Source: Candidatus Flemingiibacterium sp.
Lineage (GTDB): Bacteria; Bacillota; Clostridia; Oscillospirales; CAG-272
Direction of reading: 5' to 3'
Assembly: GCA_045587285.1 (NCBI GenBank)
Contig: JAZNBZ010000160.1
Coordinates: forward strand, 1-57,627
Length of the DNA: 57,627 bases
Part shown: positions 17,440-43,961 of the stretch, piece by piece
Layout: each line of letters begins with the position of its first letter
How positions within the stretch are numbered: the stretch's first letter is position 1
Made by a program: the position numbers and the translations under genes
Notes under the pieces: model-generated
Told to the model about the DNA's origin: nothing
The model's input: only the letters and a program-made list of their open reading frames with translations
Databases searched by the model: none

Positions 17440-17467
17440 ACGCTCTCTCCCTTCATAAAACGCGACA

Positions 17468-17494
17468 AACGAGGTGCGCAAAGCGCACCTCGTG
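17468..17494 (-). terminator. hairpin after rnfB (end of the rnf operon)
   Basis: Stem CGAGGTGCGC/GCGCACCTCG with a 3-nt loop. On the minus strand it is followed by TTTGTCGCGTTTT. Confidence 0.55.
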
Positions 17495-17499
17495 AATCG

Positions 17500-18348: not shown

Positions 18349-18361
18349 AGCTGTACCTCCA

Positions 18362-28089: not shown

Positions 28090-28182
28090 AAACGTGGGGG
28101 CTGTTTGATATCAGACAGTCCCCTCAGCTTGTTGAAAACATCGAGACGGAATCAAATTATAAAGAATTCTGCAAATTTATTA

Positions 28183-28289
28183 GGCTCGCCCTTTGGGAGA
28201 GCTGTCGCTGTAAGCGACTGAGAGGGTCAATGTCGTTTAAAAGCCCTCTCCGTCAGCCGATGGCTGACACCTCTCCCTGAGGGCGAGGC
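28183..28289. repeat. pair of GC-rich hairpin repeat units (REP-like dispersed family)
   Basis: Units GGCTCGCCCTTTGGGAGAGCTGTCGCTGTAAGCGACTGAGAGGGTC (28183-28229) and GCCCTCTCCGTCAGCCGATGGCTGACACCTCTCCCTGAGGGCGAGGC (28243-28289). The second unit is related to 44148-44200. Confidence 0.6.
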
Positions 28290-28411
28290 ATTTTAGTTGC
28301 TTTGCGTTTATCTCGGATAAAAAATTTGAATATTTATAAAATATATATTGAAATTCTCGCTTTAGTGTGTTACAATAAATTAGATCGTCATTGTGAAAGC
28401 GAGGACTGCGT

Positions 28412-29134
28412 GTGAATACGGATATTGCAAGAATTATGAGCCGCGTCGTTTTAGCGGACAAAAAGGTAAAAATCAAGCTTCTCGGCGACTCTATCACTCA
28501 TGGAGTGGGCGGCACGGGATTCATACAAAACGGTGAGTCTATTGCGGAGAGCTTTAAGAGAAACCCCGACGGGTACTGCTGGGCGAAGCTTTTTTCTGAG
28601 CATATGGAGTCGCAGTACAACTGCACCGTAGTTAACAACGGCTGTACGGGTACGAAGATAGAGTTCATCATAAAGCATTTCGACACGCTCGTTGACGAGG
28701 ACGACGATATAATCATCTGTACTATCGGCACGAATAACCGCGCACAGCTCTTTTCCGACGCTCCGAGACGTACGCGAGAGGAGCATTTGAAATTGGTTTA
28801 CAGCAGTATCCTCGAGCTTTACGGTATGTTCAAGACGGCGAATAAGGACGTTATTTTCGTTACCAATATCCCCGCATCCGCGGAAAACGAAAAGGACGGA
28901 GACCATTATTGGCGCGTTATTCATATGAACGATATAAACGACCTTTATTTAAAGGTGTCGGTCGAATGCGGCTTTCCGCTTATCAGCTTGTATACGCGAT
29001 TTACGGAATATTGCGATATGCGCGGCATTGAGCTTGACACGCTGCTGTCTGACGGGCTTCACCCGAACGACGAGGGCTATGCGGTGATGTACCGCCTTAT
29101 TATGCGAGAGCTTGGACTTGGAGTAAAGGTTTAA
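28412..29134 (+). CDS. SGNH/GDSL family hydrolase
   Basis: Block I is LLGDSITHG and block V is DGLHPNDEGY. GTG start with a GAGGA RBS. Confidence 0.8.
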   Translation: MNTDIARIMSRVVLADKKVKIKLLGDSITHGVGGTGFIQNGESIAESFKRNPDGYCWAKLFSEHMESQYNCTVVNNGCTGTKIEFIIKHFDTLVDEDDDIIICTIGTNNRAQLFSDAPRRTREEHLKLVYSSILELYGMFKTANKDVIFVTNIPASAENEKDGDHYWRVIHMNDINDLYLKVSVECGFPLISLYTRFTEYCDMRGIELDTLLSDGLHPNDEGYAVMYRLIMRELGLGVKV

Positions 29135-29151
29135 GATAAAGGAGAAACGTT

Positions 29152-30036
29152 ATGGCAGAGCTTCTTAAAAATCTCGGCTATTACGCCGGAAAATACGACC
29201 TTATCGAAAATATGCAGGTCCCGATGACCGACCGCGTTTGCTGGTTCGGCGACGGCGTTTACGAGGCGACGGCGACGCGAAACGGCGTTATTTACTGCCT
29301 TGACGAGCACATCGAGCGCTTTTACAATTCCGCCAAGCTGGTGGAGATTGAGATACCGATGAGCAAATCGGAGCTTGCCGCGCTGCTTTGTGACCTTGTT
29401 TCAAAGGTGGACGTGTCGGACACGAACGGCGAAACGTTCCTTTATTGGCAGATAACGCGCGGCGCAAATATTCCGCGCGGACACGAATTCCCCGTTGATG
29501 CAAAGGCTAATCTCTGGGTTACCGTAACGCCGAGAAAACTCGCCGACGTTTACAAAGAGATGAAGGTGCTCTCTCACGAGGACATCCGCTTCTTTATGTG
29601 CAATATCAAAACGCTTTGTCTGCTTCCGAACGTGCTTGCGGCAGAAAAGGCGAAGAAGGCGGGTGCCGGCGAGTGCGTACAGTACCGCGCCGAGGCAAAC
29701 GGCATCAAGAACCGCGTCACCGAAGGCTCACACTCTAACGTACACTGTATAAAGGATGGCAAGGTCTATACCGCTCCGCTTGACAATCTTATCCTGCCGG
29801 GCATCGCGAGAAAAAACCTTATCAAGGTTTGTGCCTCACTCGGAGTTGAGGTCATCGAGGAGCCGTTCTCACTCGAATTTTTAAAGAATGCCGACGAGGT
29901 TATATTCACATCAAGCTCGAATTTCTGTGTCAGAGCAACGCATATCGACGGCGAGGCGGTCGGCTGCAGGGCGGCGGCGCTTCTCAAGAGCATAAGAGAT
30001 GCGCTTCGGGCTGATTATCTTGAAAAAACAAAGTAA
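29152..30036 (+). CDS. class IV (D-amino-acid/branched-chain) aminotransferase, Dat-like
   Basis: FGDGVYE, the catalytic-region K (CNIKTL) and EGSHSNV motifs. 294 aa. Confidence 0.75.
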   Translation: MAELLKNLGYYAGKYDLIENMQVPMTDRVCWFGDGVYEATATRNGVIYCLDEHIERFYNSAKLVEIEIPMSKSELAALLCDLVSKVDVSDTNGETFLYWQITRGANIPRGHEFPVDAKANLWVTVTPRKLADVYKEMKVLSHEDIRFFMCNIKTLCLLPNVLAAEKAKKAGAGECVQYRAEANGIKNRVTEGSHSNVHCIKDGKVYTAPLDNLILPGIARKNLIKVCASLGVEVIEEPFSLEFLKNADEVIFTSSSNFCVRATHIDGEAVGCRAAALLKSIRDALRADYLEKTK

Positions 30037-30060
30037 AATTATTCCAGAAGGAGATCACAT

Positions 30061-31245
30061 ATGAAAATCAACACAAATTACAAAAAGCTCAAGGAAAGCT
30101 ATCTCTTTTCCGATATAGCGAAGAAGGTTGCCGATTATAAGGCGGCAAATCCCGACGCGGACGTTATCCGCCTCGGTATCGGCGACGTTACGCTTCCGCT
30201 TTGCGACGCTGTCGTTAAGGCGTTCCACGAGGCTGTCGATGAAATGGGCAGCAAGGACAGCTTCAAGGGCTACGGTCCCGAGCAGGGCTACGGCTTCTTA
30301 AAGGACGCTATCAAGGATTACTACAAAACCGAGGACGGCGTCGAGCTTAACGCTGACGAGATCTTTATCTCCGACGGCGCAAAGAGCGATCTCGGCAACA
30401 TTCTCGACATTTTCGCAAAGGACAACACCGTTCTCGTTCCCGATCCCGTTTACCCCGTTTACGTTGACACAAACACGATGGACGGACGCAATATCGTCTA
30501 TATGAACGGCAGTGCGGAGAACAACTTCCTTCCGATGCCCGACGACAGTGTTGACGCGGATATCATCTACCTCTGCTCGCCGAACAATCCGACAGGCGCG
30601 GCGTACAACCGCGAGCAGATGCGTGCTTGGGTTGACTACGCAAAAAAGAAGGGCGCTATCATTCTCTTTGACGCGGCTTACGAGTCGTTTATCTCCTCGA
30701 AGGAGCTTGTACGCTCGATCTACGAGATTGAAGGCGCACGCGACTGCGCTATCGAGTTCTGCTCGTTCTCCAAGACCGCGGGCTTCACGGGTACTCGCTG
30801 CGGCTGGACCATCGTTCCGATGGAGCTTGTATGCGACGGGCTTTCGCTCAATAAGCTCTGGCTTCGCCGTCAGACTACCAAGTTCAACGGCGTCTCTTAT
30901 CCCGTACAGCGTGCGGCGGCGGCTGTGTTCACTCCCGAGGGACGTGCACAGATCGCAGAAAATCTCGCTTACTACAAGGAGAACGCAGGTATCATCACCG
31001 CTGCTCTCGACGAGCTTGGCATATGGTACACGGGCGGCGTGAACTCGCCTTATATCTGGCTCAAGTGCCCGAACGGTATGGGCTCTTGGGAGTTCTTCGA
31101 TCTTCTCCTTACCAAGGCGAACGTGGTCGGTACTCCCGGCGCGGGATTCGGTGAGATGGGCGAGGGCTTCTTCCGCCTTACCGCATTCGGCGACCGCGAG
31201 CGTACACGCGAGGCGGCAGAGCGCATCAAGAAGCTTTTTAAATAA
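30061..31245 (+). CDS. dapL: LL-diaminopimelate aminotransferase
   Basis: N-terminal [10 protein letters not shown]...[17 protein letters not shown], and [15 protein letters not shown] (the PLP-binding lysine). 394 aa. Confidence 0.85.
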
Positions 31246-31257
31246 TGATTTTTTGTG

Positions 31258-31288
31258 TCGGGCACCGTGAAATCACGGTGCCCGATTT
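31258..31288 (+). terminator. intrinsic terminator after dapL
   Basis: 13-bp stem TCGGGCACCGTGA/TCACGGTGCCCGA followed by TTTGG. Confidence 0.7.
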
Positions 31289-31350
31289 GGATATTTTTAG
31301 CGTTTATTTGGACAAAATTAAGAATGTTTGAAATGCCTCGAAAATTCTGT

Positions 31351-31379
31351 TGACAAGCCGATTTTGATATGTTAGAATG
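31351..31379 (+). promoter_or_regulatory. consensus promoter of the paralog array (P1)
   Basis: TTGACA at 31351-31356, 17-nt spacer, TAGAAT at 31374-31379. The flanking ATGTTAGAATG is identical to the sequence at P4. Confidence 0.65.
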
Positions 31380-31410
31380 GCATCGGAAAATATATTTTTT
31401 GGAGGCTTTT

Positions 31411-33552
31411 ATGTTACCGAGAATAAATCCCGAGCTTACACCCGAGAGAAATAATCTTCCCACCCGTTGGCAGACCGTTATTTTCAGAAACTACCGTATG
31501 ATCAGCGCAGACGTTATCGCCAAGGTGCTCGAGTGCAGCGTCGAGGTCGTTGAGCGTGAGGCTAAACGTATGGGACTTCGCGCGGGTGAATATAACCCCG
31601 AGTGGATGGAGCGCGGCTTCATTACCGTTATCCGCAACAATTGGTATCTACTCCCGTACGATCAGCTTATGACGCTGACCGGTTACACAGAGGACCATCT
31701 CGACTTCATTCTCGAAAAGGAGGATTTTCTCTCCTACAAGCTCGGCTACAGAAACAAGCCGGAGTGCGCGCGTGTAATCTACTCGCCGCTTACCGACGAA
31801 GAAATCGCCGAAACCGAGCACGTTGCGAAGATCATCGCAAAGTTTGACACGTCGGAGCGAGTTTACTTTGATATCTACCGCGACAAGACCGACCGTGAGC
31901 CGAAGTATGTCGCCTCCAAGGAAGGCGGCTCGAGAGGACTTCACCCGTATCTCGCGTCCTGCTCGGATCCGTTCATTACCGACACGAGAAGCTTCCTTCC
32001 CGACGCGCTTCTCGACGATTATGCGAAGTACGGCATTAACAGCATTGGCGCTCACGGCGTTCTTTCAACGCTCTCTCCGTTCCCGTACGACCCCGATCAG
32101 AGCCGTGACTACAAGATCCGCCGCAAGAACTTAAAGGATCTCGTTGAGCGCGCCGGCAAGCGCGGCATCGGCATCAGTCTTTACTTTAACGAGCCGCTTG
32201 CGGTGCCGATCAATAAGTTCGAAAAGTACGGCCGCCCCGAGCTTGCGGGACGCGTCAGTGGGAGCGGTCTGGTGTCGCTCTGTATGGAGGTTGAGGAGAA
32301 CCGTCAGTGGTTTTATAATGCTATAAAGGACCTTCTCACGGAAATTCCCGACATTGGGAGCATCGGCTGTACCACTATGGGTGAGAACCCCACGCACTGT
32401 CTGTCCAGCAAGCGCGCCGCAGGCGATCAGAACTGTCCGCGATGTGCTGACCTTCCGCTTCACAGAGGCTCGACCACCGTATGTAACCTCGTCTTGAAGG
32501 CTGTACGTGACTCTGGTGCCAAGACGAGCGTCGGATGCTCGACCTGGCAGTGGACTGACGAGATGGTCGAGGAGGGCTTCAAGGAGCTTGATCCCGAGAT
32601 AAGCGTAAGCGCTACAAGCGAATGGGGCGTTAAGACCAACATCGGCGGCATTCCGTGGGAGGTTGTTGACTTCTCTATCGCCAACTACGGTCCGAGTGAC
32701 TGGGCAAAGCGAGTTGTAAGCCACGGACTTGCAACAGGACACAAGGTAGGCCTTAAGGTGCAGATGTCCTGCAGCTGGGAGCTTGCGGTATGCCCGTATC
32801 TGCCGCTGTTTGATCTTGAGCTTGAGCACATTAAGGCGGTGCACGATATCGGAGTAACCAGCCTCGGTCTTACCTGGACTCTCGGAGGCTATCCGTCCAT
32901 CACGTTTGATATGGTCGCTGACTACCTGACGGCACCAGACACGTTCACGATGGAAAAATGGTACGAAAAGCATTTTGGCAAGGACGGCGAGCGCGTTCAC
33001 GAGGCGGTTAAGCTCTTCAGCCGCGGATACCGCGAATATCCGTTCAGCGCATACACCGCTTACCACGATCCCAATAACCTCGGCGTTTCCAACCGTTGGA
33101 GCTTAACTCCGAACACCAACAAGACGACTATGGTAAACTGGACCTTCGACGATCCCGAATACTATGCAAAGCCGTATCCGATAGACATCTACATAAACCA
33201 GTACGAAAAATTGCTTGCCGATTGGGACAAGGGTATTGAACTGCTTGAGGGCGTTGACAACGATATTGCGCGCGAGATGCTGCTGTTTGCACGTGTTGCG
33301 GCAAATCATTTCCATTCGAGTATAGTACACACAAAGTATGTTCTTGCAAAGAGAAAGCTTCCCGAAGCGAAGGACGAGATGCGTGCGGTTATCGCAGAGG
33401 AAAGAGCGCTTTGCGAGGAGCTTATCGAGCTCTTGCCGCAGTCTACTATGATTGCGTACGAAACGTCGAACCACTATTTCTACACAGAGCGCGATATTAT
33501 CGAAAAGCTTATACAGCTGGACGGGCTCGAAAAAGAGCTTGACAATATGTGA
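31411..33552 (+). CDS. uncharacterised 713-aa cytoplasmic protein, paralog 1 of 4 (HTH-like N-terminal modules plus barrel-like core)
   Basis: ATG at 31411 with a GGAGG RBS (track start 31369 rejected). MLPRINPELTPERNNLPTRWQTVIFRNYRM...TSNHYFYTERDIIEKLIQLDGLEKELDNM. No TM segment or signal peptide. Confidence 0.85.
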   Translation: MLPRINPELTPERNNLPTRWQTVIFRNYRMISADVIAKVLECSVEVVEREAKRMGLRAGEYNPEWMERGFITVIRNNWYLLPYDQLMTLTGYTEDHLDFILEKEDFLSYKLGYRNKPECARVIYSPLTDEEIAETEHVAKIIAKFDTSERVYFDIYRDKTDREPKYVASKEGGSRGLHPYLASCSDPFITDTRSFLPDALLDDYAKYGINSIGAHGVLSTLSPFPYDPDQSRDYKIRRKNLKDLVERAGKRGIGISLYFNEPLAVPINKFEKYGRPELAGRVSGSGLVSLCMEVEENRQWFYNAIKDLLTEIPDIGSIGCTTMGENPTHCLSSKRAAGDQNCPRCADLPLHRGSTTVCNLVLKAVRDSGAKTSVGCSTWQWTDEMVEEGFKELDPEISVSATSEWGVKTNIGGIPWEVVDFSIANYGPSDWAKRVVSHGLATGHKVGLKVQMSCSWELAVCPYLPLFDLELEHIKAVHDIGVTSLGLTWTLGGYPSITFDMVADYLTAPDTFTMEKWYEKHFGKDGERVHEAVKLFSRGYREYPFSAYTAYHDPNNLGVSNRWSLTPNTNKTTMVNWTFDDPEYYAKPYPIDIYINQYEKLLADWDKGIELLEGVDNDIAREMLLFARVAANHFHSSIVHTKYVLAKRKLPEAKDEMRAVIAEERALCEELIELLPQSTMIAYETSNHYFYTERDIIEKLIQLDGLEKELDNM

Positions 33553-33570
33553 TTTATAAGGAGAATTGCT

Positions 33571-35745
33571 ATGTTACCCGTAATCAACCCCGAAATGACA
33601 CCCGAAAGAAACAATCTTCCCACCCGTTGGCAGACGGTTATTTTCAGAAACTACCGTATGGTGCCTGCTGAAAATATCGCAAAGGTGCTTGAGTGCACAG
33701 TAGAGGACGTTGAGCGCGAGGCGGCACGCCTCGGACTTCGCCAAGGTGAAGCCGATCCGATATGGTTCAGACGCGGACATATCACGATTATCCGCAACAA
33801 CTGGTATCTTTTGCCGTATGAGCAGATGCTGACGCTTCTTGACTATACCGAGGAAAAGCTCGATTTTATACTCGAAAAGGAGGACGGCCTTTATTCAAAG
33901 CTCGGCTTCACCAAGCCACTTTGTGAGAAGGTTACCTACTCGCCGCTTACCGAGGCGGAAATTGCCGAAACCGAAGCACTAGCAAAGACGATATCCGAGT
34001 ACGATACCTCTCATAGGGCATATTTCGATTTTTACGACGATACTTCCGATTTTGAGCCGAGATACGTTACGTCAGTCGAAAAGGGTATTCGTATGGTTTA
34101 TCCGTACCTCACTCCGTGCGGTGATCCGTTTTTGGTGGATTCTCGCACGCATCTGCCCGACGAGCTGCTTGATGACTACGCAAAGGTCGGCGTGAACACG
34201 TTTATCATTTACGCTGTTTTGTCGACGCTTTCACCGTATCCGATAAACCCCGAGGATAGCCGCGACTATAAGCTTCGCCGTAAGAATCTAAAGGAGCTTA
34301 TTGAGCGCGCAGGCAAGCGCGGTATTAAGATATGCCTTTATTTAAACGAGCTGCGTGCATTGCCGCGTGAGGTTTTCGAGCGTTACGGCAGACCTGACCT
34401 TGGCGGATCGGTAAGCGGCTCGGGGGATTTCGTTGCGCTTTGTATGCAGAAGGAGGAAAACCAAAAGCTTCTTTACGATCTTACGTATGACCTCTTTTCC
34501 GATATTCCCGAGATCAGCTACGTGTGCTGTACCACAATGAGCGAGCACATGACTCATTGCATTTTCCAAACGTATTATCCGGAGCTTCCAACGACTCCCG
34601 GCGATCCGAGAGGGACTGTGTGTCCCGTTTGCAAGGAGCTTCCCGTTGAAACAAATTCGGTAATCGTCTTGAATATCATCAATAAAGCTATTCGCGACGC
34701 CGGCAGCAATGCGACTACGATTGGTACAATGTGGGCGTGGAGTAGCGAGGAGATGATAGAAAACGGTATCCCGAAGCTTGACAAGGATATGATTATCTTA
34801 GGCTTCAGTGAATGGGGTATGCCGTTTAAGGCCGGCGAGCGCACGTTTGAGGTTATTGACTATTCCATTTCCAATTACGGACCGAGTGAGCGATACAAAA
34901 AGGTTGCCAAGGTCGCTATGGAAAGCTCTCACGAGATGATGGCAAAGGTTCAGCTTTCAAATAGCTGGGAGCTTGCGGCGGTGCCGTATCTGCCTCTTTT
35001 CGATATGGAGCTTGACCATATAAGAAATCTTAATGCAATAGGCACGAAAAACTATCAGCTGACCTGGACGCTGGGAAGTTATCCGTCGCTTACGTTTGAT
35101 ATGGTGGCGAACTATCTCGACGCTCCCGATACGTTCGACCTTGACAAATGGTATGAGAAGCATTACGGTGCAGACGCACCGAGAGTGCACGAGGCTGTAA
35201 AGCATTGCTGCAAGGGCTTCAGGGAGTATCCGTTCAGCATAGAGGTCATCTATTTCTCCGCGAAGAATCACGGTGCGGTCAACCGTTGGAATTTGTCGCC
35301 CGTTAAGCAAAGCTCCGCGGTGGTAGGCTGGACGTTCGATGACGTTGAGTATTATACAAGACCGTATAAGCCGCAGCTCTTTATCGAGCATTACGAAAGG
35401 CTTATCGCTGAATTTGACAAGGGTATTGAAATTCTTGAAGGCGCACAGAGCACGGACGCCGCAAAGGAGCTGCTCCTCTTTGCCAAGATTGCGAGAAATC
35501 ACTTTATGGCGGACGTTGTACATACAAAATATGTGCTTGCAAAACGCAGACTGCCCGCCTCGAAGGACGAGATGCGCACGCTTATCGCAGAAAACCGCGC
35601 ACTCTGTCTTGAGCTTTTAGAGCTCGTTGCGCAGTCGACGCTCGCCTGCTACGAAACCGCAAATCACTATTTCTACACCGAGCGCGATATTATCGAAAAG
35701 CTTATTCAGCTTGACGGCCTTGAAAAAGAGCTTGAAAATATGTAA
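33571..35745 (+). CDS. uncharacterised 724-aa protein, paralog 2 of 4
   Basis: AAGGAGA RBS, 18 nt after paralog 1. Collinear with paralogs 1 and 3 along its whole length. Confidence 0.85.
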   Translation: MLPVINPEMTPERNNLPTRWQTVIFRNYRMVPAENIAKVLECTVEDVEREAARLGLRQGEADPIWFRRGHITIIRNNWYLLPYEQMLTLLDYTEEKLDFILEKEDGLYSKLGFTKPLCEKVTYSPLTEAEIAETEALAKTISEYDTSHRAYFDFYDDTSDFEPRYVTSVEKGIRMVYPYLTPCGDPFLVDSRTHLPDELLDDYAKVGVNTFIIYAVLSTLSPYPINPEDSRDYKLRRKNLKELIERAGKRGIKICLYLNELRALPREVFERYGRPDLGGSVSGSGDFVALCMQKEENQKLLYDLTYDLFSDIPEISYVCCTTMSEHMTHCIFQTYYPELPTTPGDPRGTVCPVCKELPVETNSVIVLNIINKAIRDAGSNATTIGTMWAWSSEEMIENGIPKLDKDMIILGFSEWGMPFKAGERTFEVIDYSISNYGPSERYKKVAKVAMESSHEMMAKVQLSNSWELAAVPYLPLFDMELDHIRNLNAIGTKNYQLTWTLGSYPSLTFDMVANYLDAPDTFDLDKWYEKHYGADAPRVHEAVKHCCKGFREYPFSIEVIYFSAKNHGAVNRWNLSPVKQSSAVVGWTFDDVEYYTRPYKPQLFIEHYERLIAEFDKGIEILEGAQSTDAAKELLLFAKIARNHFMADVVHTKYVLAKRRLPASKDEMRTLIAENRALCLELLELVAQSTLACYETANHYFYTERDIIEKLIQLDGLEKELENM

Positions 35746-35759
35746 TAAGGAGAGTTGCT

Positions 35760-37934
35760 ATGTTACCCGTAATCAAACCTGAATGGACCCCCGAGAGAAA
35801 TAATCTTCCCACCCGTTGGCAGACGGTTATTTTCAGAAACTACCGTATGATCCCGAGTGAGAATATCGCAAAGGTGCTTGAATGTACAGTAGAGGAGGTT
35901 GAGCGCGAGGCGGCTCGCCTCGGACTTCGTGCGGGTGAGGCTGACCCCGTATGGTTCGAGCGCGGTCATATAACGCTTATCCGCAATAACTGGTATCTCT
36001 TACCGTACGATCAGCTTATGGCGCTTATCGACTATACCGAGGAGAAGCTTGACTTCGTTCTCGAAAAGGACGATTTCCTTTTCGTTAAGATGGGTAACGG
36101 TAAGCCCGTCTGCGAGAAGGTCGTATACGAGCCGCTGACAGAGGCACAGCTCGCCGAAACCGAAAAAATTGCTAAGATCATCGCAAAGCTCGATACCAAC
36201 GAGCGCAAGATGTTCGACTTCTACAACGATCCTACGGATACCGAGGTCAAATACGTTACCTCTACCGAGAGCGGACTGCGTACGGTGCATCCGTACCTCA
36301 CCCCGTGTGCCGACCCGTTTATGGTGGACTCGCGCACGCATCTTCCCGATGCGCTTCTCGACGACTACGCGAAGGTCGGTGTAAACTCGTTCATAATTCA
36401 CGCGGCACTTTCCACGCTTTCGTATTTCCCGATAAATCCCGTTGACAGCAAGGATTACAAAATTCGCCGCAAGAACTTAAAGGAGCTTGTAGAACGTGCA
36501 GGCAAGCGCGGCATTAAGATCGCTCTTTACTTCAACGAGCTTCGTGCCGTGCCGATAGACGTGTTTGAAAAATACGGACGTCCCGAGCTTGGCGGCTCTA
36601 TAAGCGAGGACGGCAGACGTATTTCGCTTTGTATGCAGCATAAGGACAATCAAAAGCTGCTTTACGATATGGTAAAGGATCTCTTCACGGAAATTCCCGA
36701 TATCGGCATCGCATCCTGCACTACGATGAGTGAGAATATGACTCACTGTATGTACCGCCCGAATATGGGACAGATTTCGAAGGTTACGGGAAAGCAAGTT
36801 GGCGTTGGTTGCCCCATTTGTATGAATCTTCCGCTTGAAACCGGCCCCGTAACCACCGTAAATATTATAAACAAGGCTATTCGCGACGCGGGAAGCAAGG
36901 CTGTTGTTGTTTCATCGACGTGGGCTTGGACCGACGATCAGATCAAAAACGGCATCCCGAAGCTTGACCCGGGAATTATGACCGGCTGTATCAGCGAATG
37001 GGGTATGCCTTTCACCGTTGGCGATCGCACCTACGGAGTTACTGACTACTCTATCTCAAACTACGGCCCGAGTGATATGGCAAAGGGTATTGTAGACATC
37101 TCGAGAAAGCACGGACATGAGTGCTCTGTTAAGATTCAGGTATCTAACAGCTGGGAGTGCGCGGTCGTTCCGTATCTTCCGCTCTTCGATCTCGAGCTTG
37201 CACACGCTAAGGCGGTACACGACATCGGTGTAAACAATTTCAGCCTTACCTGGACGCTCGGAAGCTATCCGTCCATCACGTTTGACCTCATTGCAGATTA
37301 TCTGAATGCTCCCGACACGTTCGATCTTGAAAAGTGGTACGAGAAGCATTACGGCGCTGATGCGGCAAAGGTACACGAGGCGGTTAAGCTTTGCTGTGCC
37401 GGTTTCAGAAAGTATCCCTTCAGCTGCGAGGTAATGTACGAGTCCGCAAAGAACCTCGGCGTTGCAAACCGCTGGAATTTTGCACCCGTTACACAGAAGT
37501 CTACTATGGTATGCTGGACGTTCGATAACGTAGACCACTACGCAAAGCCGTACACCGCAGAGGGCTTTATCGAGCAGTACGGCAAGATGCTGCCCGAGTT
37601 TGACGCGGGCATAAGGGTGCTCGAGAGTGCGGCAAACACCGACGCGGCGAAGGAATTGCTTCTTTTTGCCAAGGTTGCGCGCAACCACTTTATGGCGGAC
37701 GTCGTACATACGAAGTACGTGCTTGCAAAGGCGAACCTTCCCGCATCGAAGGACGAGATGCGTGCTATAATCGCCGAGGAGAGAGCGCTGTGCGAGGAGC
37801 TTTTAGAGCTTACGCCGCAGTCCACTCTCAACGCGTACGAAACCGCGAACCACTACTTCTACACCGAGCGCGATATCATCGAAAAGCTTATCCAACTTGA
37901 CGGACTCGAAAAAGAACTTGAAAATTTGAAATAA
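35760..37934 (+). CDS. uncharacterised 724-aa protein, paralog 3 of 4
   Basis: AAGGAGA RBS, 14 nt after paralog 2. About 70% amino-acid identity to paralog 2 by eye. Confidence 0.85.
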   Translation: MLPVIKPEWTPERNNLPTRWQTVIFRNYRMIPSENIAKVLECTVEEVEREAARLGLRAGEADPVWFERGHITLIRNNWYLLPYDQLMALIDYTEEKLDFVLEKDDFLFVKMGNGKPVCEKVVYEPLTEAQLAETEKIAKIIAKLDTNERKMFDFYNDPTDTEVKYVTSTESGLRTVHPYLTPCADPFMVDSRTHLPDALLDDYAKVGVNSFIIHAALSTLSYFPINPVDSKDYKIRRKNLKELVERAGKRGIKIALYFNELRAVPIDVFEKYGRPELGGSISEDGRRISLCMQHKDNQKLLYDMVKDLFTEIPDIGIASCTTMSENMTHCMYRPNMGQISKVTGKQVGVGCPICMNLPLETGPVTTVNIINKAIRDAGSKAVVVSSTWAWTDDQIKNGIPKLDPGIMTGCISEWGMPFTVGDRTYGVTDYSISNYGPSDMAKGIVDISRKHGHECSVKIQVSNSWECAVVPYLPLFDLELAHAKAVHDIGVNNFSLTWTLGSYPSITFDLIADYLNAPDTFDLEKWYEKHYGADAAKVHEAVKLCCAGFRKYPFSCEVMYESAKNLGVANRWNFAPVTQKSTMVCWTFDNVDHYAKPYTAEGFIEQYGKMLPEFDAGIRVLESAANTDAAKELLLFAKVARNHFMADVVHTKYVLAKANLPASKDEMRAIIAEERALCEELLELTPQSTLNAYETANHYFYTERDIIEKLIQLDGLEKELENLK

Positions 37935-37950
37935 AATAGCTGTAAATGGC

Positions 37951-37979
37951 TTGACATTAGGGAAAGTAAATGTTAGAAT
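37951..37979 (+). promoter_or_regulatory. consensus promoter of paralog 4 (P4), a duplicate of P1
   Basis: TTGACA at 37951-37956, 17-nt spacer, TAGAAT at 37974-37979. Geometry and ATGTTAGAATG context are the same as P1. Confidence 0.6.
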
Positions 37980-37980
37980 G

Positions 37981-38018
37981 AATGGGCAGAGAGAAATTTT
38001 CTGCCCATTTATATTTTT
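37981..38018 (+). terminator. terminator-like hairpin placed immediately after the P4 -10 box
   Basis: AATGGGCAG (37981-37989) pairs with CTGCCCATT (38001-38009), followed by TATATTTTT. It could terminate the paralog 1-3 transcript. A TSS from P4 would fall inside the 5' arm. Confidence 0.5.
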
Positions 38019-38029
38019 GGAGAAAGCTT

Positions 38030-40171
38030 ATGTTACCGAAAATAATTGAAACGACCACGAAAAGACTTAATCTTCCCACTCTCTGGCAGACGGTCATTTT
38101 CAGAAATTACCGTATGGCTCCGAGTGAAAATATCGCGAAGATCATCGGCTGTACTGCCGAGGACGTTGAACGCGAGGCGCTCCGTCTCGGTCTTATAAAG
38201 GGCGAGGGCACGAAGGAGTGGTGCGAGCGCGGATTTATCACCATTTTCCGCAACAACTGGCACCTGCTTGAATACGATCAGCTCCGTGACCTCGTCGGTA
38301 TGACCGACGCGCGCCTTGATTTCGTGCTCGAAACCGAGGACTTTCTCGGAATAAAGCTCGGTCACCAAAAGCCCGCAGTCGAAAGGCCCGTATACGCTCC
38401 CTTGACCGACGAGCAGATAAAAGAAACCGAAAAGGCTGCACAAACTATAAAGAAGTACGACACCGTCGAGCGCACGATGTTCGATTTCTTCAACGATAGA
38501 ACCGATAAGGAGCCTAAGTTCGTCGCTTCGAGCGAGAACGGCACCCGTATCGTTCACGGCTTCCTCTCTCCCTGCGGTGACGCGTTTATCGAGGACACTC
38601 GCTCGCATCTTCCCGACGTGCTTCTTGACGCGTACGCAGAGCAGGGCGTAAACACGCTGTTCTTACACGCCGTTCTTTCCACGCTTTCCTACTATCCGTT
38701 TGCTCCCGAGCTTTGCGAGGGCTACGAGATCCGCCGCAAGAACTTAAAGGACCTCGTCGCAAGAGCAGGCAAGCGCGGTATAAAGATATACCTTTACTTC
38801 GACGAGCCCCGCTCGCTGCCCGTAGATCTCTTTGAGCGCTACGGTCATAAGGAGATCGAGGGCAGACACCCCAAGCGCGGCGGCGTATGCCTGTGCCTGT
38901 CTACCGACGAGCCTAAGGAATATCTCTACAACGCAACCAAGGAGCTCTTCGAGGCGATCCCCGAGCTTGGCGGTATGCTCAATATCACCTGGAGTGAGTA
39001 CACCACTCACTGCCTCTCTCACGGCAGAAACGACTGCGATTGCCCGAGATGTAAGGACCTGCCCCTTTGGGAGCTTCCCGTACTCGTTAACAACGTTATG
39101 CACAAGGCTGTCCGCGACGCAGGCAGCGACGCGGAGGTGCTCTCGTACGCTTGGGGCTGGCAGGGTTGGCCGCAGGACGAGCTTGAAGCGGCGATGACTG
39201 CGCTTCACAAGGAGATCGGCGTTATTCAGGTAAGCGAAACCAGAAAGCCGATCGAGCGCGGCGGCGTTGAGGGTGTCGTCGGCGACTATTCCATTTCCGT
39301 GCTCGGTCCGAGCCCTATTGCCGAAAACTTCCTTAAAACTGCGGCAAGATTCGGTCACAAGACCTTTGCAAAGGTGCAGATGTCCTGTAGCTGGGAGGCG
39401 GCAATGGTGCCGTACCTTCCCGTGTTCGACCTTGAGCTTCAGCATCTTAAAAACCTCCACGAGATCGGCACGAACAACTATATGCTCACCTGGACGCACG
39501 GCGGTTATCCGTCCATTACGTTCGATATGATCTCCGACTATATGAAGTCGCCCGACACGTTCGAGCTTGACGAGTGGTACGAAAAGCAGTTCGGCGCGAA
39601 CGGTAAAGCGGTTCACGAGGCTATCAAGGTGTTCTGCGAGGGCTTTGAGAACTATCCCTTCAGCGTTGCGACGATGTATACCTCGCCGAAGAATATCGGC
39701 CCTGCTAATATGTGGATGCTCGAGCCCGACAACAATCCCTCGTCGATGGTCTGCTACGCGGTGGACGACTACGAGAAGTGGATCGCGCAGTATCCCGTTG
39801 ACGTGTATCTTGACCTTTTCGGAAAGGTAACAGACGCGTGGAAGCGCGGCTGCGAGATGCTCGAAGCGGTTGCAAACGACGAAAAGACGCGCGAGCTTTT
39901 ACTGTTCGCGAAGGTGGCTACGCTTTCGTTCGAGGCTGACATTATTCACACCGAGTATGCGGTTGCGAAGCGCGAGCTTCCCGCGACGAAGGACAAGATG
40001 GCGGAGCTTATCGCACGCGAGCGCGAGGTAACGAAGCAGATGCTTGAGATAATTCCCAAGTCTACGCTCGTCGGCTACGAGGCGTCCAACCACTACTTCT
40101 TCACCGAGCGTGAGTACATAGAAAAGCTCATCAACCTCGACGGCATTGAAAAAGAGCTTGAAAAGATGTAA
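38030..40171 (+). CDS. uncharacterised 713-aa protein, paralog 4 of 4 (most divergent)
   Basis: ATG at 38030 with a GGAG RBS (track start 37982 rejected). MLPKIIETTTKRLNLPTLWQTVIFRNYRM...SNHYFFTEREYIEKLINLDGIEKELEKM. Confidence 0.85.
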   Translation: MLPKIIETTTKRLNLPTLWQTVIFRNYRMAPSENIAKIIGCTAEDVEREALRLGLIKGEGTKEWCERGFITIFRNNWHLLEYDQLRDLVGMTDARLDFVLETEDFLGIKLGHQKPAVERPVYAPLTDEQIKETEKAAQTIKKYDTVERTMFDFFNDRTDKEPKFVASSENGTRIVHGFLSPCGDAFIEDTRSHLPDVLLDAYAEQGVNTLFLHAVLSTLSYYPFAPELCEGYEIRRKNLKDLVARAGKRGIKIYLYFDEPRSLPVDLFERYGHKEIEGRHPKRGGVCLCLSTDEPKEYLYNATKELFEAIPELGGMLNITWSEYTTHCLSHGRNDCDCPRCKDLPLWELPVLVNNVMHKAVRDAGSDAEVLSYAWGWQGWPQDELEAAMTALHKEIGVIQVSETRKPIERGGVEGVVGDYSISVLGPSPIAENFLKTAARFGHKTFAKVQMSCSWEAAMVPYLPVFDLELQHLKNLHEIGTNNYMLTWTHGGYPSITFDMISDYMKSPDTFELDEWYEKQFGANGKAVHEAIKVFCEGFENYPFSVATMYTSPKNIGPANMWMLEPDNNPSSMVCYAVDDYEKWIAQYPVDVYLDLFGKVTDAWKRGCEMLEAVANDEKTRELLLFAKVATLSFEADIIHTEYAVAKRELPATKDKMAELIAREREVTKQMLEIIPKSTLVGYEASNHYFFTEREYIEKLINLDGIEKELEKM

Positions 40172-40188
40172 TTGCATAGATAAAACCG

Positions 40189-40217
40189 AACCCCTCACGG
40201 ATTTTTCGTGAGGGGTT
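40189..40217. terminator. bidirectional hairpin between convergent genes
   Basis: AACCCCTCACG / GTGAGGGGTT stem with a T-rich loop and flanks. Confidence 0.65.
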
Positions 40218-40221
40218 ATTT

Positions 40222-42144
40222 CTATCCAATTTCAAATGCAACGCCGTCGCGCGCGTTTATCGCGAGATTTATCTTGCCGGCGTTTTTGTAAACCTCGCCG
40301 CTTCGGACGTTTGTGAGCGTGACGGGATTTTTGAGCTTACACTCGAACGCCATATCCTCGCGAGGGAAGAACGATATCACGCGGTTGTCCGCGTATACCG
40401 TACATTCCTTCGGCGCGTAGCAGTGCACGCCTGCCGCCTCGACAATTTCGCGTGTGGTGTCAATGCTCATCGGTACGCTCTCAACGACAAAATCGGCGAG
40501 CGAGGCGTCGGCGGAGGTGTAGCCGTGCAGAAGTATCGAAGAGTCCTTTGGCAGACGCGCGCGAAGGCTCTCCAGCCACTCGCTTGTGTACGTCGTCGGG
40601 TGCAAAAGCACGACGAGGCGTGTGCCAGACAGATCCATTTCCTCAAGGTCGTGCGTGAACACGACGTCGAGCGGCGCACCGCAAAGCTGAAGGTTGCGAA
40701 GGCTTTCCTCACAGGTCGGCACGGCGGTCGTCGGGCTGTGAAGGATGCCGTCCTCGTCCGCGACGACGAGTATCTCGGCGACGCTTTCGTGCGCTTTTTT
40801 TCTGATGCGCTCGGCGGCGCCGTTAAGCACGGCGATATTTTTCATTATCTCCGCGTCGTCGAACCAGCCGCCGCCAAGGTCCATATACCAAAAGCCCGAA
40901 TCGTGCGAGATGTTTTTGCAAAGCTCGCGAAGATGCACGGCACAAGTTTCTCCGAGAGTGGCCGCGTTATTGTTGACGTCGCCCTGCACGAGGTGCGTAC
41001 GGCAGTCGCACTCGTCTATCCAATATTTCTTGCGGTTTACGCCGACCGCCGGCGCCATTTCGCCGCTCGGCTCACCGGGCGCGCTTCGGTAATACGACTT
41101 GGGCGCGGCGAAGAAGTCTACGTTCGGGCAGTCGAGCAGGCGGTGCCAGCCGACGTGACCTGCGTAAACGCATCTTGCCATATACATTACGTAGCCGTAG
41201 AACGCGCCGACGGGCTTGCCGCCCGTTTTGCGCTTTATGATATCGCCGAAATACGATATTGCATCGGTGTTGGTTTCGTAAACGAACGTGTCGTAGTCGA
41301 GCGCGCGGCGGTCACGCACAGCGTCGCGGACGCGGTGCTCCTTAGGCTCGCGCTCCTCGGGAGAGGGAACCGTGTCGCCCTCAAAATTTCCCCAAGCGGC
41401 GCGCACTGCATCGTACGAGCCGTACTTTTTTAACGCCCAATCAAGGAAGCTCTTTTGACTCGTGATGCCGTAGTCGCCGAATTTTCCTGCCTTCTGTCCC
41501 CACACGTTCGCCTCTCCGCAAACGCCGTAGGCAATGTGATACGCGAGTATTTTCTCGGCGTACGGGCCGTTTTCGATGTGCTCAATGAGCCGCTCAAGTG
41601 CAGCGCCTGCATCGTGAAGCCATTTTTTTGAGCAGAAGCTTTGCAAAGAGATAAGTCCGCCGACATTCGGGCGCGGATCCTGCCAGCCGTTCGCGTTGTA
41701 GTAGCCGACCTTCGACTCATAGCCGAGATAGTCGTGTTTTTCGGTGCCGACGAGGTCGCGTATCTCATTTTCACTTCGCGGACCGTTATAGTAAACGAAA
41801 ACCTCGCTCGGATTTTCCAGACACCAATCTATCGGCACGTTGAGCTTTATGCGCGGAATGAAATATTCTACCTTGCCCGAGGCGAAGATAGCGTCGAGAA
41901 CTCGGTCGCAGAGCGAGTAGTCGTACGTATCAACTCCCGTCCAGCCTGCGTGCAGTATACAGGTGTGTATCTTAACGCCTGCGTCGGCAAAGGCGTCGTG
42001 AGTTTTGGTGTAAAAATCAAAGTCGGGATTAAAGACGAGCGGCTTGCCATCCTCGCCGAGCATCGGCGGATCGTAGCAAAAGCCGAGCCTTGACCAGAAA
42101 AGCGTGCTTTGCTTCAGCATTTCAAGCGCTTCTGTAGCGTTCAT
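40222..42144 (-). CDS. putative glycoside hydrolase, GH42-like (TIM barrel plus glutamine-amidotransferase-like middle domain)
   Basis: 640 aa, cytoplasmic. FWSRLGF resembles the GH42 N-terminal AWSRLEP region. RLVVLLHPTTY resembles the GH42 trimerisation-domain strand. The assignment is by eye only. Confidence 0.45.
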   Translation of the reverse strand: MNATEALEMLKQSTLFWSRLGFCYDPPMLGEDGKPLVFNPDFDFYTKTHDAFADAGVKIHTCILHAGWTGVDTYDYSLCDRVLDAIFASGKVEYFIPRIKLNVPIDWCLENPSEVFVYYNGPRSENEIRDLVGTEKHDYLGYESKVGYYNANGWQDPRPNVGGLISLQSFCSKKWLHDAGAALERLIEHIENGPYAEKILAYHIAYGVCGEANVWGQKAGKFGDYGITSQKSFLDWALKKYGSYDAVRAAWGNFEGDTVPSPEEREPKEHRVRDAVRDRRALDYDTFVYETNTDAISYFGDIIKRKTGGKPVGAFYGYVMYMARCVYAGHVGWHRLLDCPNVDFFAAPKSYYRSAPGEPSGEMAPAVGVNRKKYWIDECDCRTHLVQGDVNNNAATLGETCAVHLRELCKNISHDSGFWYMDLGGGWFDDAEIMKNIAVLNGAAERIRKKAHESVAEILVVADEDGILHSPTTAVPTCEESLRNLQLCGAPLDVVFTHDLEEMDLSGTRLVVLLHPTTYTSEWLESLRARLPKDSSILLHGYTSADASLADFVVESVPMSIDTTREIVEAAGVHCYAPKECTVYADNRVISFFPREDMAFECKLKNPVTLTNVRSGEVYKNAGKINLAINARDGVAFEIG

Positions 42145-42274
42145 TTTGGAGGCTCCTATTTTATAAGTATATTTGTACGTAAGAAATACCGTATAAATTA
42201 TACTTTACTTTTTCGGACATTGCAATAATTTTTCGAAACCCGTTCAATATTTTTTGCAAAATTCGTAAAGGTGC

Positions 42275-42303
42275 TTGACCTTACGGCGAAAATAATGTAT
42301 AAT
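42275..42303 (+). promoter_or_regulatory. sigmaA-type promoter of the M23 gene
   Basis: TTGACC at 42275-42280, 17-nt spacer, TATAAT at 42298-42303. Confidence 0.6.
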
Positions 42304-42350
42304 GTAGATATATAATGTGTAACTATACATAAAATTAAGGGGATATAAAA

Positions 42351-43961
42351 ATGACGAAGCTTAATAAAAGTTTGCTCATAACGATTGGCATTATCGCCGC
42401 ATTGTTTATACCGACGTATATTGCTCTCGGAAATTTCGTTTATTCGCAGTTCGCGTCCGTGAGTCCGACGAGCATCACGAAGCTTGAGATCACAGATCCG
42501 AGGGGAACGCTGTTCACGCTTTCGGCTGACGATTCAAAGGCTGCATCGGATATTGCGGGATTCGTCAAGATAAACGATAACGCCGCAAGAAAGACCTCGC
42601 TCCCCGAGGCGCTTGAGGGCACCGACTTTTTTGAATTCAAATATTTCAGCTACGACAGAGTAAAGACGTATAAGTATTACTTCTCCGAAAATCAGTCGGA
42701 GGCATACTACGTTGACGACAAGGGCACCGCATATCAGATAAACGAGAACGATGCGCTCGCCTTCCTCGCAACGAAATACGCGCGCTGCTTATACACCACG
42801 GCGTCCTTCCCGCAGATGACCGTGTCCGCGCAGGAGATCACTCCCGTGTCGGGCGAATGGGTTTACAAGACCTACGGCGGCGATTACGTTGCTCTTGAAA
42901 ATATTGAGCAAGCGCCCAAGACGGACGACGTTTATCAGATGAAGGGCGCGTTCGCGCTGTCGTTTGACAACGAGCCCGATTTCCTTAACGTAACCATAAG
43001 CGACGACACCGGCGTGGTGTTCAGCGACAGCTACGCTAACATTGCAAACGCTTCGCTCGAGGGCAGAACGATAGACGTCGTGGTCGAGGCGAAGTGGTAC
43101 GAGTCCGAAACGGAGAACTGCTACGGCTCCGCAACCTACGAGTTCAAGGCGAAGATACTTCTCCCTGCGGTATTCTATCTCGGCAAGACGGAGATAGAGC
43201 CCGGCGAGTTCGTGGTAATTTCCGCAAAGAACGTTGACGATCCCTCTGCGATAAAGGTAACGACCGAGCCCGATATCGGCTTTACGCCCACCTTCTTCAC
43301 CGATGGCAGATACGCGCGTGCGCTCCTTCCCGTATCTATGGAGTATGAGGGCGGCGACGTTAAGATAATCTGCTCGTACGGTGAGGTTTCGCAGGAGATG
43401 ACGCTCAATATAATCCCCAAGACCTTCAGAAGCAGCACGCTTGAGATCGGCGCGTCGATAGTAAGCCAGACGCGCACGGAAACCACTATAAAGGCGTTCA
43501 ACGACACGATGGCTCCGATAGTTGCCAAGACAGAGTCCACACCGCTTTGGGAGGGCTTGTTCACAGAGGCGGTCAATGCTGACGTTACCGTCGGCTTTGG
43601 TATAAAGCGTACGATATCCGCAACGGGTGAGGTATACCGCCATCAGGGCATCGACTACGTTGCTACTGCGGGCAAGGAGGTTATGGCGACGAACAACGGT
43701 AAGGTCGTTTACGTCGGCTACCTCGATCTTCCCGGATATATGGTCGTCATCGACCACGGACTCGGCCTCAAGAGTTGGTACTGCCACCTCGGCTCGACGG
43801 CGGTTGCAGTTGGAGATACGGTCGCGAAGGGCGACGTTGTCGGCTACGCGGGCTCCACGGGCTTCACGGTAAATCCGTTCCCGCATATCGGTCTTTCGGT
43901 GTTTGACGTTCCCGTATGTCCCTACGATCTCTGGGATGAGGGTATCCCGATGACGGAATAA
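42351..43961 (+). CDS. membrane-anchored M23/LytM-domain protein (HxH motif degenerate)
   Basis: N-terminal TM helix. The C-terminal LytM domain has HQGIDY (HxxxD) and GSTG, but PHIGLSV replaces the canonical PHLHFEV. Confidence 0.75.
   Translation: MTKLNKSLLITIGIIAALFIPTYIALGNFVYSQFASVSPTSITKLEITDPRGTLFTLSADDSKAASDIAGFVKINDNAARKTSLPEALEGTDFFEFKYFSYDRVKTYKYYFSENQSEAYYVDDKGTAYQINENDALAFLATKYARCLYTTASFPQMTVSAQEITPVSGEWVYKTYGGDYVALENIEQAPKTDDVYQMKGAFALSFDNEPDFLNVTISDDTGVVFSDSYANIANASLEGRTIDVVVEAKWYESETENCYGSATYEFKAKILLPAVFYLGKTEIEPGEFVVISAKNVDDPSAIKVTTEPDIGFTPTFFTDGRYARALLPVSMEYEGGDVKIICSYGEVSQEMTLNIIPKTFRSSTLEIGASIVSQTRTETTIKAFNDTMAPIVAKTESTPLWEGLFTEAVNADVTVGFGIKRTISATGEVYRHQGIDYVATAGKEVMATNNGKVVYVGYLDLPGYMVVIDHGLGLKSWYCHLGSTAVAVGDTVAKGDVVGYAGSTGFTVNPFPHIGLSVFDVPVCPYDLWDEGIPMTE

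Follow-up and report, generated by a model that had tools for sequence, protein, structure and literature searches.

The products of four tandem genes on contig JAZNBZ010000160.1 of Candidatus Flemingiibacterium sp. are likely to be cytoplasmic enzymes, competent in catalysis, from a large and unclassified family that resembles the glycoside hydrolases (GHs), and an old expansion of the family here would have given rise to related specificities. The genes span positions 31411-40171 on the + strand of the 57,627-nt contig, which was analysed at its full length and is called the window below. This reading draws on a structure predicted for one of the four proteins, on residues conserved throughout the family and on the genes that adjoin its relatives or are fused to them. 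A sequence-only reading of the same DNA had described the array as a fourfold amplification of an unrecognised protein with a helix-turn-helix (HTH)-like module; what has held is that these are cytoplasmic paralogs outside the named models, with a beta/alpha core, a helical tail and no adjoining transporter or regulator, whereas a fresh amplification, an unrecognisable fold and a DNA-binding role are not supported.

Four collinear genes

The four open reading frames (ORFs) lie on one strand and, in amino acids (aa), measure 713, 724, 724 and 713, as had been proposed.

31411-33552, + strand: copy 1, 713 aa; the three invariant glutamates, the cluster of four cysteines and the set of tryptophans are all kept
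33571-35745, + strand: copy 2, 724 aa; has its own ribosome-binding site and starts 18 nt past the stop of copy 1
35760-37934, + strand: copy 3, 724 aa; used for the structure model
38030-40171, + strand: copy 4, 713 aa; the most divergent, with 50-52% identity to the other three

Their coordinates and an end-to-end alignment over 728 columns, with pairwise identities of 50-68% (59, 63 and 52% to copy 1 for copies 2, 3 and 4, respectively), confirm that the four-copy observation is real. The conserved ends described earlier, MLP...NLPT.WQTVIFRNYRM at the N-terminus and NHYF.TER..IEKLI.LDG.EKEL at the C-terminus, are present in the form given. A mechanical ORF list had stretched copies 1 and 4 to upstream ATGs; we used instead the MLP starts, each of which is preceded, at a distance of 6-9 nt, by a GGAG(G) ribosome-binding site, and the products of which are exactly the proteins of the NCBI record. 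The gaps within the first part of the array are short, 18 nt between copies 1 and 2 and 14 nt between copies 2 and 3. Hydropathy bears out the earlier view that no copy is exported or membrane-bound, as neither a signal peptide nor a transmembrane segment was found in the window proteins (the maximum Kyte-Doolittle mean over 19 residues is 1.2).

A predicted glycosidase-type fold outside the named sequence families

A Pfam scan of the four copies brought no family to its threshold and gave only noise and a hint of GHL6, the latter in copies 2 and 3 only (17.6-19.2 bits, against a cut-off of 35), and an NCBIfam scan of the same proteins gave nothing meaningful. When profiles built from 4, 40 and 67 sequences were run against all PDB sequences, glycosidases were absent from the matches at E <= 10, which means that the catalytic residues are not placeable on a solved structure by sequence. 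A confident full-length match to a characterised family was not reached in Pfam, in NCBIfam or among PDB sequences. The claim that the proteins can be assigned to no named family stands in that all of these searches stayed below threshold, but the fold is recognisable, so that we would call the family unclassified rather than unrecognisable.

That fold comes from an AlphaFold2 model of copy 3, built on a 40-sequence alignment, which has a mean predicted local distance difference test (pLDDT) of 92.2 and a predicted template-modelling score of 0.92, and in which only residues 335-347 are disordered. Three-helix units at residues 19-53 and 64-103 and a long helix at 128-144 are followed by eight beta/alpha units over residues ~170-520 and then by long helices to the C-terminus, giving three predicted domains.

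Copy 3, aa 1-165: N-terminal domain
Copy 3, ~aa 170-520: (beta/alpha)8 barrel
Copy 3, ~aa 521-724: helical bundle

The alternating beta/alpha core and the helical tail that had been proposed are both found in the model, but the tail measures about 200 aa, not 120. When the model was compared with the PDB by Foldseek there were 160 matches at E <= 1e-3, and the top 22 were all glycosidases, led by the GH138 structure 6HZG (E 4.6e-12, 720 aligned columns) and continuing with GH20C, GH67, GH84 and GH115. For GH138, GH67, GH115, GH20 and GH84 the Foldseek probability is 1.00, with E values of 5e-12 to 2e-6. The suggested check by AlphaFold and Foldseek has thus given a glycosidase-type architecture of N-terminal domain, triose-phosphate isomerase (TIM) barrel and helical bundle. 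We consider this predicted structure decisive for the fold, and the proteins almost certainly descend from barrel-plus-helical-bundle glycosidases.

Relatives of 800-900 aa share all three domains and have an insert of about 110 residues between the N-terminal domain and the barrel; the inserted residues match Glyco_hydro_20b with best E values of 2e-5 to 2e-3, always under the Pfam cut-off. GHL6 was matched by five of 40 members (best E 6e-4). The hints from sequence, namely those of a GH20b-like domain, DUF4838 and Glyco_hydro_67M, agree with the predicted fold.

Conserved residues and a candidate active site

Conservation was assessed in 369 full-length members, which include short forms, long forms, fusions and Planctomycetes, and residues are numbered here as in copy 3. 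At least 97% conserved are W78, L200, Y257, E260, R262, G279, C291, E325, C330, C351 and C354; W388, W390, Y430, K458, Q460, W465, E466, P471, P474 and W498; and G501, P504, P553, Y560, G567, E694, Y699, E708 and K709. In a set of 67 sequences that reaches down to 24% identity, E260, E325, E466, C330, C351 and C354 are strictly invariant. The codons of the candidate functional residues of copy 3, each placed by conservation and a codon check, are as follows.

36537-36539, + strand: E260, candidate catalytic glutamate
36732-36734, + strand: E325, candidate catalytic glutamate
37155-37157, + strand: E466, candidate catalytic glutamate
36630-36632, 36747-36749, 36810-36812 and 36819-36821, + strand: the four cysteines of the cluster
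37839-37856, + strand: the motif E694-x-x-N-H-Y699

All four window copies keep the full conserved set, with few exceptions. Three positions with a conservation of at least 95% elsewhere are changed in copy 1 (R262L, S324G and Y430F), and copy 4 reads D258-E259 in place of the N-E of the other copies, with D standing for N259. These substitutions are compatible with altered specificity.

E260, which lies in an N/D-E-P/L motif, E325 and E466 are situated 3-8 residues past predicted strands 3, 4 and 7, respectively, of the barrel. In many TIM-barrel glycosidases the acid/base and the nucleophile classically lie on strands 4 and 7. The specific assignment of the catalytic roles to E325 and E466 is nevertheless tentative, and we regard it as rather doubtful. 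The four invariant cysteines (C291, C330 and the C-P-x-C pair C351-x-x-C354) flank the only disordered loop of the model, which is also the most variable one, and they most likely form a structural zinc site. Four cysteine ligands would saturate a zinc ion and so fit a structural rather than a catalytic site.

If the proteins are glycosidases, the barrel's C-terminal face would be the place where imported oligosaccharides or glycoconjugates are cut, and there E325 past strand 4 may serve as the acid/base, E466 past strand 7 as the nucleophile or base and E260 past strand 3 as a third essential carboxylate. The pocket of invariant tryptophans and tyrosines would stack the sugar, the zinc bound by the four cysteines would hold the variable loop past strand 4, and the invariant E-x-x-N-H-Y motif near the C-terminus would probably complete the active site. 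The array as a whole would then supply a panel of related specificities, with members that are under purifying selection and differ mainly in their barrel loops.

Comparison with known glycosidase families

The best full-length structural match, GH138 (PDB 6HZG, BP0997), is an alpha-galacturonidase of rhamnogalacturonan-II degradation. It resembles copy 3 in size (694 versus 724 residues) and gives TM-scores of 0.42/0.44, but identity is only 13% and there is no relationship to the window family at the level of sequence hidden Markov models (HMMs), so that the proteins fall outside GH138. The N-terminal double three-helix domain, unlike the full-length protein in the GH138 comparison, has no significant PDB match when taken alone.

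The GH67 and GH115 alpha-glucuronidases likewise combine an N-terminal domain, a (beta/alpha)8 barrel and a helical domain (Foldseek E 3e-9 to 2e-6), and a relative that is fused to a CE15 glucuronoyl esterase adds to the likeness. The matches to them, however, stay under every curated threshold, at 9-12% identity, and their GH20b-type N-terminal domain is absent from the short form of the family to which the window proteins belong. The best match to Glyco_hydro_67M was 14.2 bits in a Planctomycete relative (E 0.023), against a threshold of 23.5, and one of 40 close relatives reached E 0.24.

In the case of the GH20 and GH84 beta-N-acetylhexosaminidases (Foldseek E 2e-9 to 1e-6), likeness is seen in the GH20b-like domain of the long forms, in a predicted pocket rich in tryptophan and in the N-acetyltransferase-like domain fused to some relatives. 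Against GH20 membership, the H-x-G-G-D-E motif is missing, and similarity to GH20b is sub-threshold and confined to the long forms, hence outside the window proteins; against GH84 membership, the conserved D-D pair past strand 4 is missing. Where GH20 and GH84 have acid pairs, the only adjacent pair in the window family is N259-E260 (D-E in copy 4).

GH42 and GHL6 provide the best Pfam hint, a GHL6 match from barrel helix 1 to strand 3 (E 6e-4 to 5e-3) together with an N-E-P-like motif, and the glutamates predicted past strands 4 and 7 would be placed as in the 4/7 superfamily. The cysteines clustered near strand 4 may be comparable to a zinc site that some GH42 enzymes have. The scores nonetheless stop at 19 bits versus the 35 required for GHL6, and there was no Glyco_hydro_42 match (cut-off 21 bits). 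GH42 enzymes, moreover, have trimerisation and beta-sandwich domains, not a helical bundle, and their structures are not among the top Foldseek matches.

Finally, GH163 (the endo-beta-N-acetylglucosaminidase BT1035) and GH185 (the 6-sulfo-beta-N-acetylglucosaminidase Sp_0475) are DUF4838/PF16126 TIM-barrel glycosidases distantly related to GH20. The solved folds nearest to Sp_0475 are GH115 (4C90) and GH84 (2V5C), the GH185 cluster is reported to be cytoplasmic, and GH185 uses Q174, H227, D309, Y436 and R633 in a substrate-assisted mechanism (PMC10570127). GH115 and GH84 are thus fold neighbours of Sp_0475 and of the window family alike, whereas the three invariant glutamates, four cysteines and several tryptophans of the latter are a set different in kind. 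The long-form relative P0330 scores 27.6 bits to a partial stretch of the PF16126 profile (gathering threshold 26.6); in the four window proteins there was no PF16126 match at E <= 1, and one of 40 close relatives reached E 0.009. The window family therefore sits within the structural neighbourhood of GH20, GH67, GH84, GH115, GH138 and DUF4838 and outside each of these named families.

Distribution and genomic context of the relatives

A word-indexed search returned 289 relatives, all of them "hypothetical" and none with a precomputed Pfam domain, and a profile search of 1.84 billion cluster representatives returned 1999 at E <= 1e-3, 661 of which reached E <= 1e-30. In a scan of GTDB species genomes we found 77 loci. 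The nearest are in metagenome-assembled genomes (MAGs) of Ca. Flemingiibacterium, with up to 95% identity, while most others are in MAGs of Clostridia (Christensenellaceae, Ca. Scatosoma and Oscillospiraceae) that come from the guts of ruminants, deer and other animals; the members from Planctomycetes stand at about 30% identity.

Neighbours were read within 6 kb in 88 fetched loci plus the window, a total of 89 sequences that includes some duplicate fetches of the same contig. Those that recur on the same strand or in operons are an AraC regulator (25 loci, mostly divergent), an M24 protein with Creatinase_N and Peptidase_M24 domains (21) and a creatininase-family protein (20), followed by a GFO/IDH/MocA oxidoreductase (10), GH38 (8), GH2 (7) and GH78 (5). 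A small ASRT (PF07100) protein is encoded between the M24 and creatininase-family genes in every such operon of which the gene table was read. The M24 and creatininase-like partners score far under all NCBIfam equivalog cut-offs. In the single-copy operon of loci L002, L004, L008 and L009 (for instance L004, 6373-12139), a divergent AraC gene is followed by genes for M24, ASRT and creatininase-family proteins and then by the family gene.

Some relatives are fused to other enzymes, namely GH95, GDSL/CE2 (CE, carbohydrate esterase), CE15 glucuronoyl esterase, alkaline phosphatase and an aminoglycoside 3-N-acetyltransferase-like domain. The last of these (PF02522, E ~1e-44) occurs in two independent cluster representatives, P0146 and P0206. 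The PF02522 fusions hint that some members act on amino-sugar substrates. Relatives lie in operons for sugar catabolism under AraC control or are fused to carbohydrate-active domains, and neighbours and fusions together speak for a part in the breakdown of glycans or glycoconjugates in the cytoplasm.

Are the proteins glycosidases?

That the four proteins are glycosidase-type enzymes we judge to be probable, and several observations weigh on the other side. No curated GH-family threshold is reached, and the family is without a characterised member or a known activity. The structural neighbours have identities of 9-13% and TM-scores of only 0.35-0.46 over a multidomain alignment. The H-x-G-G-D-E motif is absent from the four copies and no D-D or D-E pair is conserved among the 369 members, in which, furthermore, no barrel aspartate reaches 90% conservation. 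The catalytic roles are assigned from the order of the DSSP strands and from conservation. The clues from context diverge, pointing variously to uronic acids, hexosamines or amino sugars, mannosides and glycopeptides, and the window array is placed among housekeeping genes, where it has neither a sugar transporter nor a regulator.

The strongest competing explanation, although we consider it unlikely, is that these are TIM-barrel enzymes active on carbohydrates or metabolites that are not glycoside hydrolases, such as a phosphorylase, a lyase, an isomerase or epimerase, an esterase or amidase, or a zinc-thiolate alkyl-transferase in which the cysteine cluster would be catalytic. Among the lower Foldseek matches are the zinc/homocysteine barrel of methionine synthase (3bof and 1q8j, E 1e-5), D-psicose 3-epimerase and old yellow enzymes; the cysteine cluster is invariant; the commonest operon partners (M24 and creatininase family) are amidohydrolase- or peptidase-like and not glycosidases; and no GH catalytic signature was matched. 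However, the 22 best structural matches, which are the sole ones to span ~560-720 columns over both barrel and bundle, are glycosidases, the long forms carry a GH20b-like domain ahead of the barrel, there is the link to DUF4838, and relatives are fused to GH and CE domains. The cysteine cluster itself, with zinc saturated by its four ligands, would fit a structural site. We therefore continue to prefer glycosidase-type enzymes.

The N-terminal domain

The two N-terminal modules had been described as an internal duplication of about 45 aa with an HTH-like pattern. Two three-helix units are present in the model and align in the register given earlier, but support for the duplication is weak (hhalign P = 1.1e-4, probability 56%, 29 columns). 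Modelled alone, the domain has a pLDDT of 89.9. Foldseek of the isolated domain against the PDB found nothing significant, with a best E of 0.24 among VqmA, IdeR and MarR-type regulators, and against BFVD it found no match at E <= 1e-3 (best E 0.005); TM-scores were ~0.2-0.25 in these searches. Matches to HTH-type Pfam families had E >= 0.03. The domain is acidic (net charge -2 to -5, isoelectric point ~5), it occurs in every family member, enzyme fusions included, and it is the region most conserved among the paralogs. As there is no significant structural match, the charge is acidic and the domain is found in all members including the fusions, a role in DNA binding is unlikely, and we regard it as an integral, family-specific enzyme domain of HTH-like topology rather than a DNA-binding module.

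Could the proteins nonetheless be sugar-sensing transcription regulators or non-catalytic binders, with N-terminal modules that bind DNA and a barrel degenerated to a sensor? The two three-helix units, the weak Foldseek lists enriched in HTH regulators and transposase HTH domains, the sub-threshold Pfam matches to Sigma70_r4_2, HTH_38 and PCI, and the lack of a separate regulator adjoining the array in the window would all suit such a role. To the missing structural match and the acidic charge, however, must be added that members fused to esterases, GH95 and phosphatase have the same N-terminal domain, that single-copy relatives lie downstream of dedicated AraC regulators, and that the barrel keeps invariant carboxylates and aromatics typical of an active site. 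Such a role is, in our view, highly improbable.

Age and copy number of the array

How old are the duplications? The proposed comparison of neighbourhood and copy number across Clostridia, in which copies per locus were counted with the family HMM, found multi-copy arrays only in Flemingiibacterium loci and in L001, and all remaining loci from outside Flemingiibacterium have one copy each. Within Flemingiibacterium the number is one in L017, two in L016, four in the window and six in L012, and L001, a metagenome contig of the same synteny, has six copies after the same NrdD-NrdG-GDSL-aminotransferase-dapL block. In a further MAG (JAZQZL), five copies run off one contig end (L014, 1251-11827) and three open another contig (L013, 1-6372), so that the true number there may be up to eight; the split over two contig ends means that short-read assemblies break inside the array. 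In other MAGs the arrays are located at the syntenic, dapL-linked site.

In a neighbour-joining tree every window copy groups with orthologs from other arrays. The genus has at least seven orthogroups, of which the window holds four, and that of copy 4 is always the last array gene in the sister genomes. Orthologs, with their ratios of nonsynonymous to synonymous substitution rates (dN/dS), are listed below.

Copy 1: orthologs L014_c3 and L001_c1, dN/dS 0.10-0.13
Copy 2: orthologs L012_c2 and L014_c2, dN/dS 0.09-0.12
Copy 4: orthologs L013_c3 and L001_c6, dN/dS 0.04-0.12

Overall, ortholog dN/dS is 0.04-0.13 and dS between the window paralogs is 1.45-1.81, which is saturated. Because sister genomes hold the orthologs, their dN/dS is low and paralog dS is saturated, the array is ancient and not a recent amplification. 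To speak of a fourfold amplification is hence misleading, as the duplications are shared with sister genomes and the window is a remnant with four of at least seven orthogroups. Judged from these sequence comparisons, the array is an old, diversified birth-and-death cluster specific to Ca. Flemingiibacterium, in which copies have been gained and lost within the genus. In pairwise comparison the four paralogs have a mean identity of 51% over the barrel and 57% over the bundle, while the N-domain repeats reach 69%; the minimum, 6%, falls in the loop between C330 and C351, and residues 16-30 are 97% identical.

The weakest alternative, to which we give next to no credence, is that the four-copy structure is an artefact of assembly or binning, or a very recent amplification without function: the contig does come from a short-read MAG, and the array broken over two contig ends in a related MAG means that assemblers struggle here, but synonymous sites are saturated, each copy has distinct orthologs in independent assemblies, arrays of two to at least six copies occupy the same dapL-linked site in other MAGs, and all copies are under purifying selection. 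DNA identity between the copies, which recur with a period of ~2160-2270 nt, is 61-70% overall and at most 85% in any 300-nt stretch; near-identical stretches between the four copies are absent, and at 61-85% identity collapsed or duplicated reads cannot explain the array.

Surroundings of the array and transcription signals

Upstream of the array are genes for NrdD, NrdG, a GDSL esterase and a class-IV aminotransferase, and then dapL, the identity of which is supported by TIGR03542 (546 bits versus a cut-off of 365). Downstream are a convergent gene for a 640-aa protein and then an M23 peptidase gene, and the remaining contig is housekeeping in character (SpoIVA, Rnf, two subtilases and others). 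As stated earlier, no transporter or regulator adjoins the array within the window. Its placement between dapL and a convergent GH42-like gene holds for dapL; the likeness of the convergent gene to GH42 is sub-threshold only.

The convergent gene (40222-42144, - strand) encodes an unclassified, glycosidase-like protein, the only matches of which are a sub-threshold one to Glyco_hydro_42 (E 1.5e-3) and PDB GH42 beta-galactosidases (E 0.007). Of the other genomes, only the nearest MAG has it (L013, 9298-11274, 86% identity), and gene and array are not inherited together. A functional tie between the two was rejected because the gene accompanies the array in that MAG only; in a Rosetta-stone test it also had no similarity to the GH42-like fusion tail of P0210. 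A role in peptidoglycan recycling, which the neighbouring dapL, D-amino-acid transaminase-like and M23 peptidase genes might suggest, was dismissed, as that gene order is found in Flemingiibacterium only and the single-copy relatives lack it.

Candidate transcription signals around the array, all at the level of patterns, are as follows.

31260-31285, + strand: likely terminator between dapL and the array, a GC-rich hairpin plus a T-rich stretch past the dapL stop, read from the sequence (gggcaccgtgaaatcacggtgcccg and atttggatattttt)
31350-31378, + strand: promoter-like element P1, 5' of copy 1; TTGACA, 17-nt spacer and TG-extended TAGAAT, 11 of 12 matches
37951-37979, + strand: promoter-like element P2, 5' of copy 4; the same boxes as P1 (TTGACA, 17 nt, TG-TAGAAT)
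37978-38012, + strand: hairpin with a 16-bp stem, followed by a T-run; situated 5' of the ribosome-binding site of copy 4, with an overlap into the P2 -10 box
40189-40217, both strands: hairpin like a bidirectional intrinsic terminator, between copy 4 and the convergent gene; stem of 11-13 bp with 7 GC pairs, T-runs on both strands

The hairpin at 31260-31285 was not listed by a pattern scan, P1 is a consensus match only, and an Rfam scan of positions 28000-43000 found no RNA family. From these patterns, copies 1-3 and copy 4 probably form two transcription units, each with its own promoter, and the hairpin at 37978-38012 could be the terminator of the copy 1-3 unit, a leader hairpin, or both.

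Elsewhere on the contig there is a second tandem pair, two subtilase genes on the - strand (47131-49965 and 49965-52937) for proteins of 944 and 990 aa with Peptidase_S8, PA and fn3_5 domains; the annotated ends of the two genes share one base, 49965. Two ORFs have no Pfam match, one at 22924-24042 (- strand, 372 aa), which also lacks an NCBIfam match, and one at 17188-18381 (+ strand, 397 aa). At 13777-15843 (- strand) lies a gene whose 688-aa product matches the Sulfatase domain (PF00884, E 5e-31), and the size of this product fits a lipoteichoic acid synthase or a sulfatase-type membrane enzyme.

Implications

The family is not described in the literature searched, which covered DUF4838, GH138, the ASRT/creatininase operon and newly defined GH families. 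A bolder reading, which we take seriously without quite favouring it, is that the family is a new GH family absent from CAZy, Pfam and NCBIfam, in which the hitherto undescribed N-terminal domain would aid catalysis or recognition, the four cysteines would hold a metal by the active site and the activity would be an uncatalogued one, perhaps one that acts in herbivore guts on decorated uronic-acid or amino-sugar residues freed from glycans of plants, the host or microbes. Were it true, the Flemingiibacterium arrays of four to eight copies would represent graded specificities for one complex substrate. For the conserved N-terminal domain and the four-cysteine site we found no counterpart among the characterised families that come closest.

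The discovery of a GH family is a regular event, and this tempers the weight of the finding. If the prediction holds, however, this would be a new family of carbohydrate-active enzymes (CAZymes) of about 2000 clusters at 50% identity, concentrated in the uncultured Clostridia of animal guts. Its members are annotated as "hypothetical", and consequently a potentially common cytoplasmic step of glycan breakdown would be invisible to metagenomic CAZyme profiling. Once the activity of one member is found, the Flemingiibacterium arrays would form a comparative set in which the determinants of specificity could be mapped.

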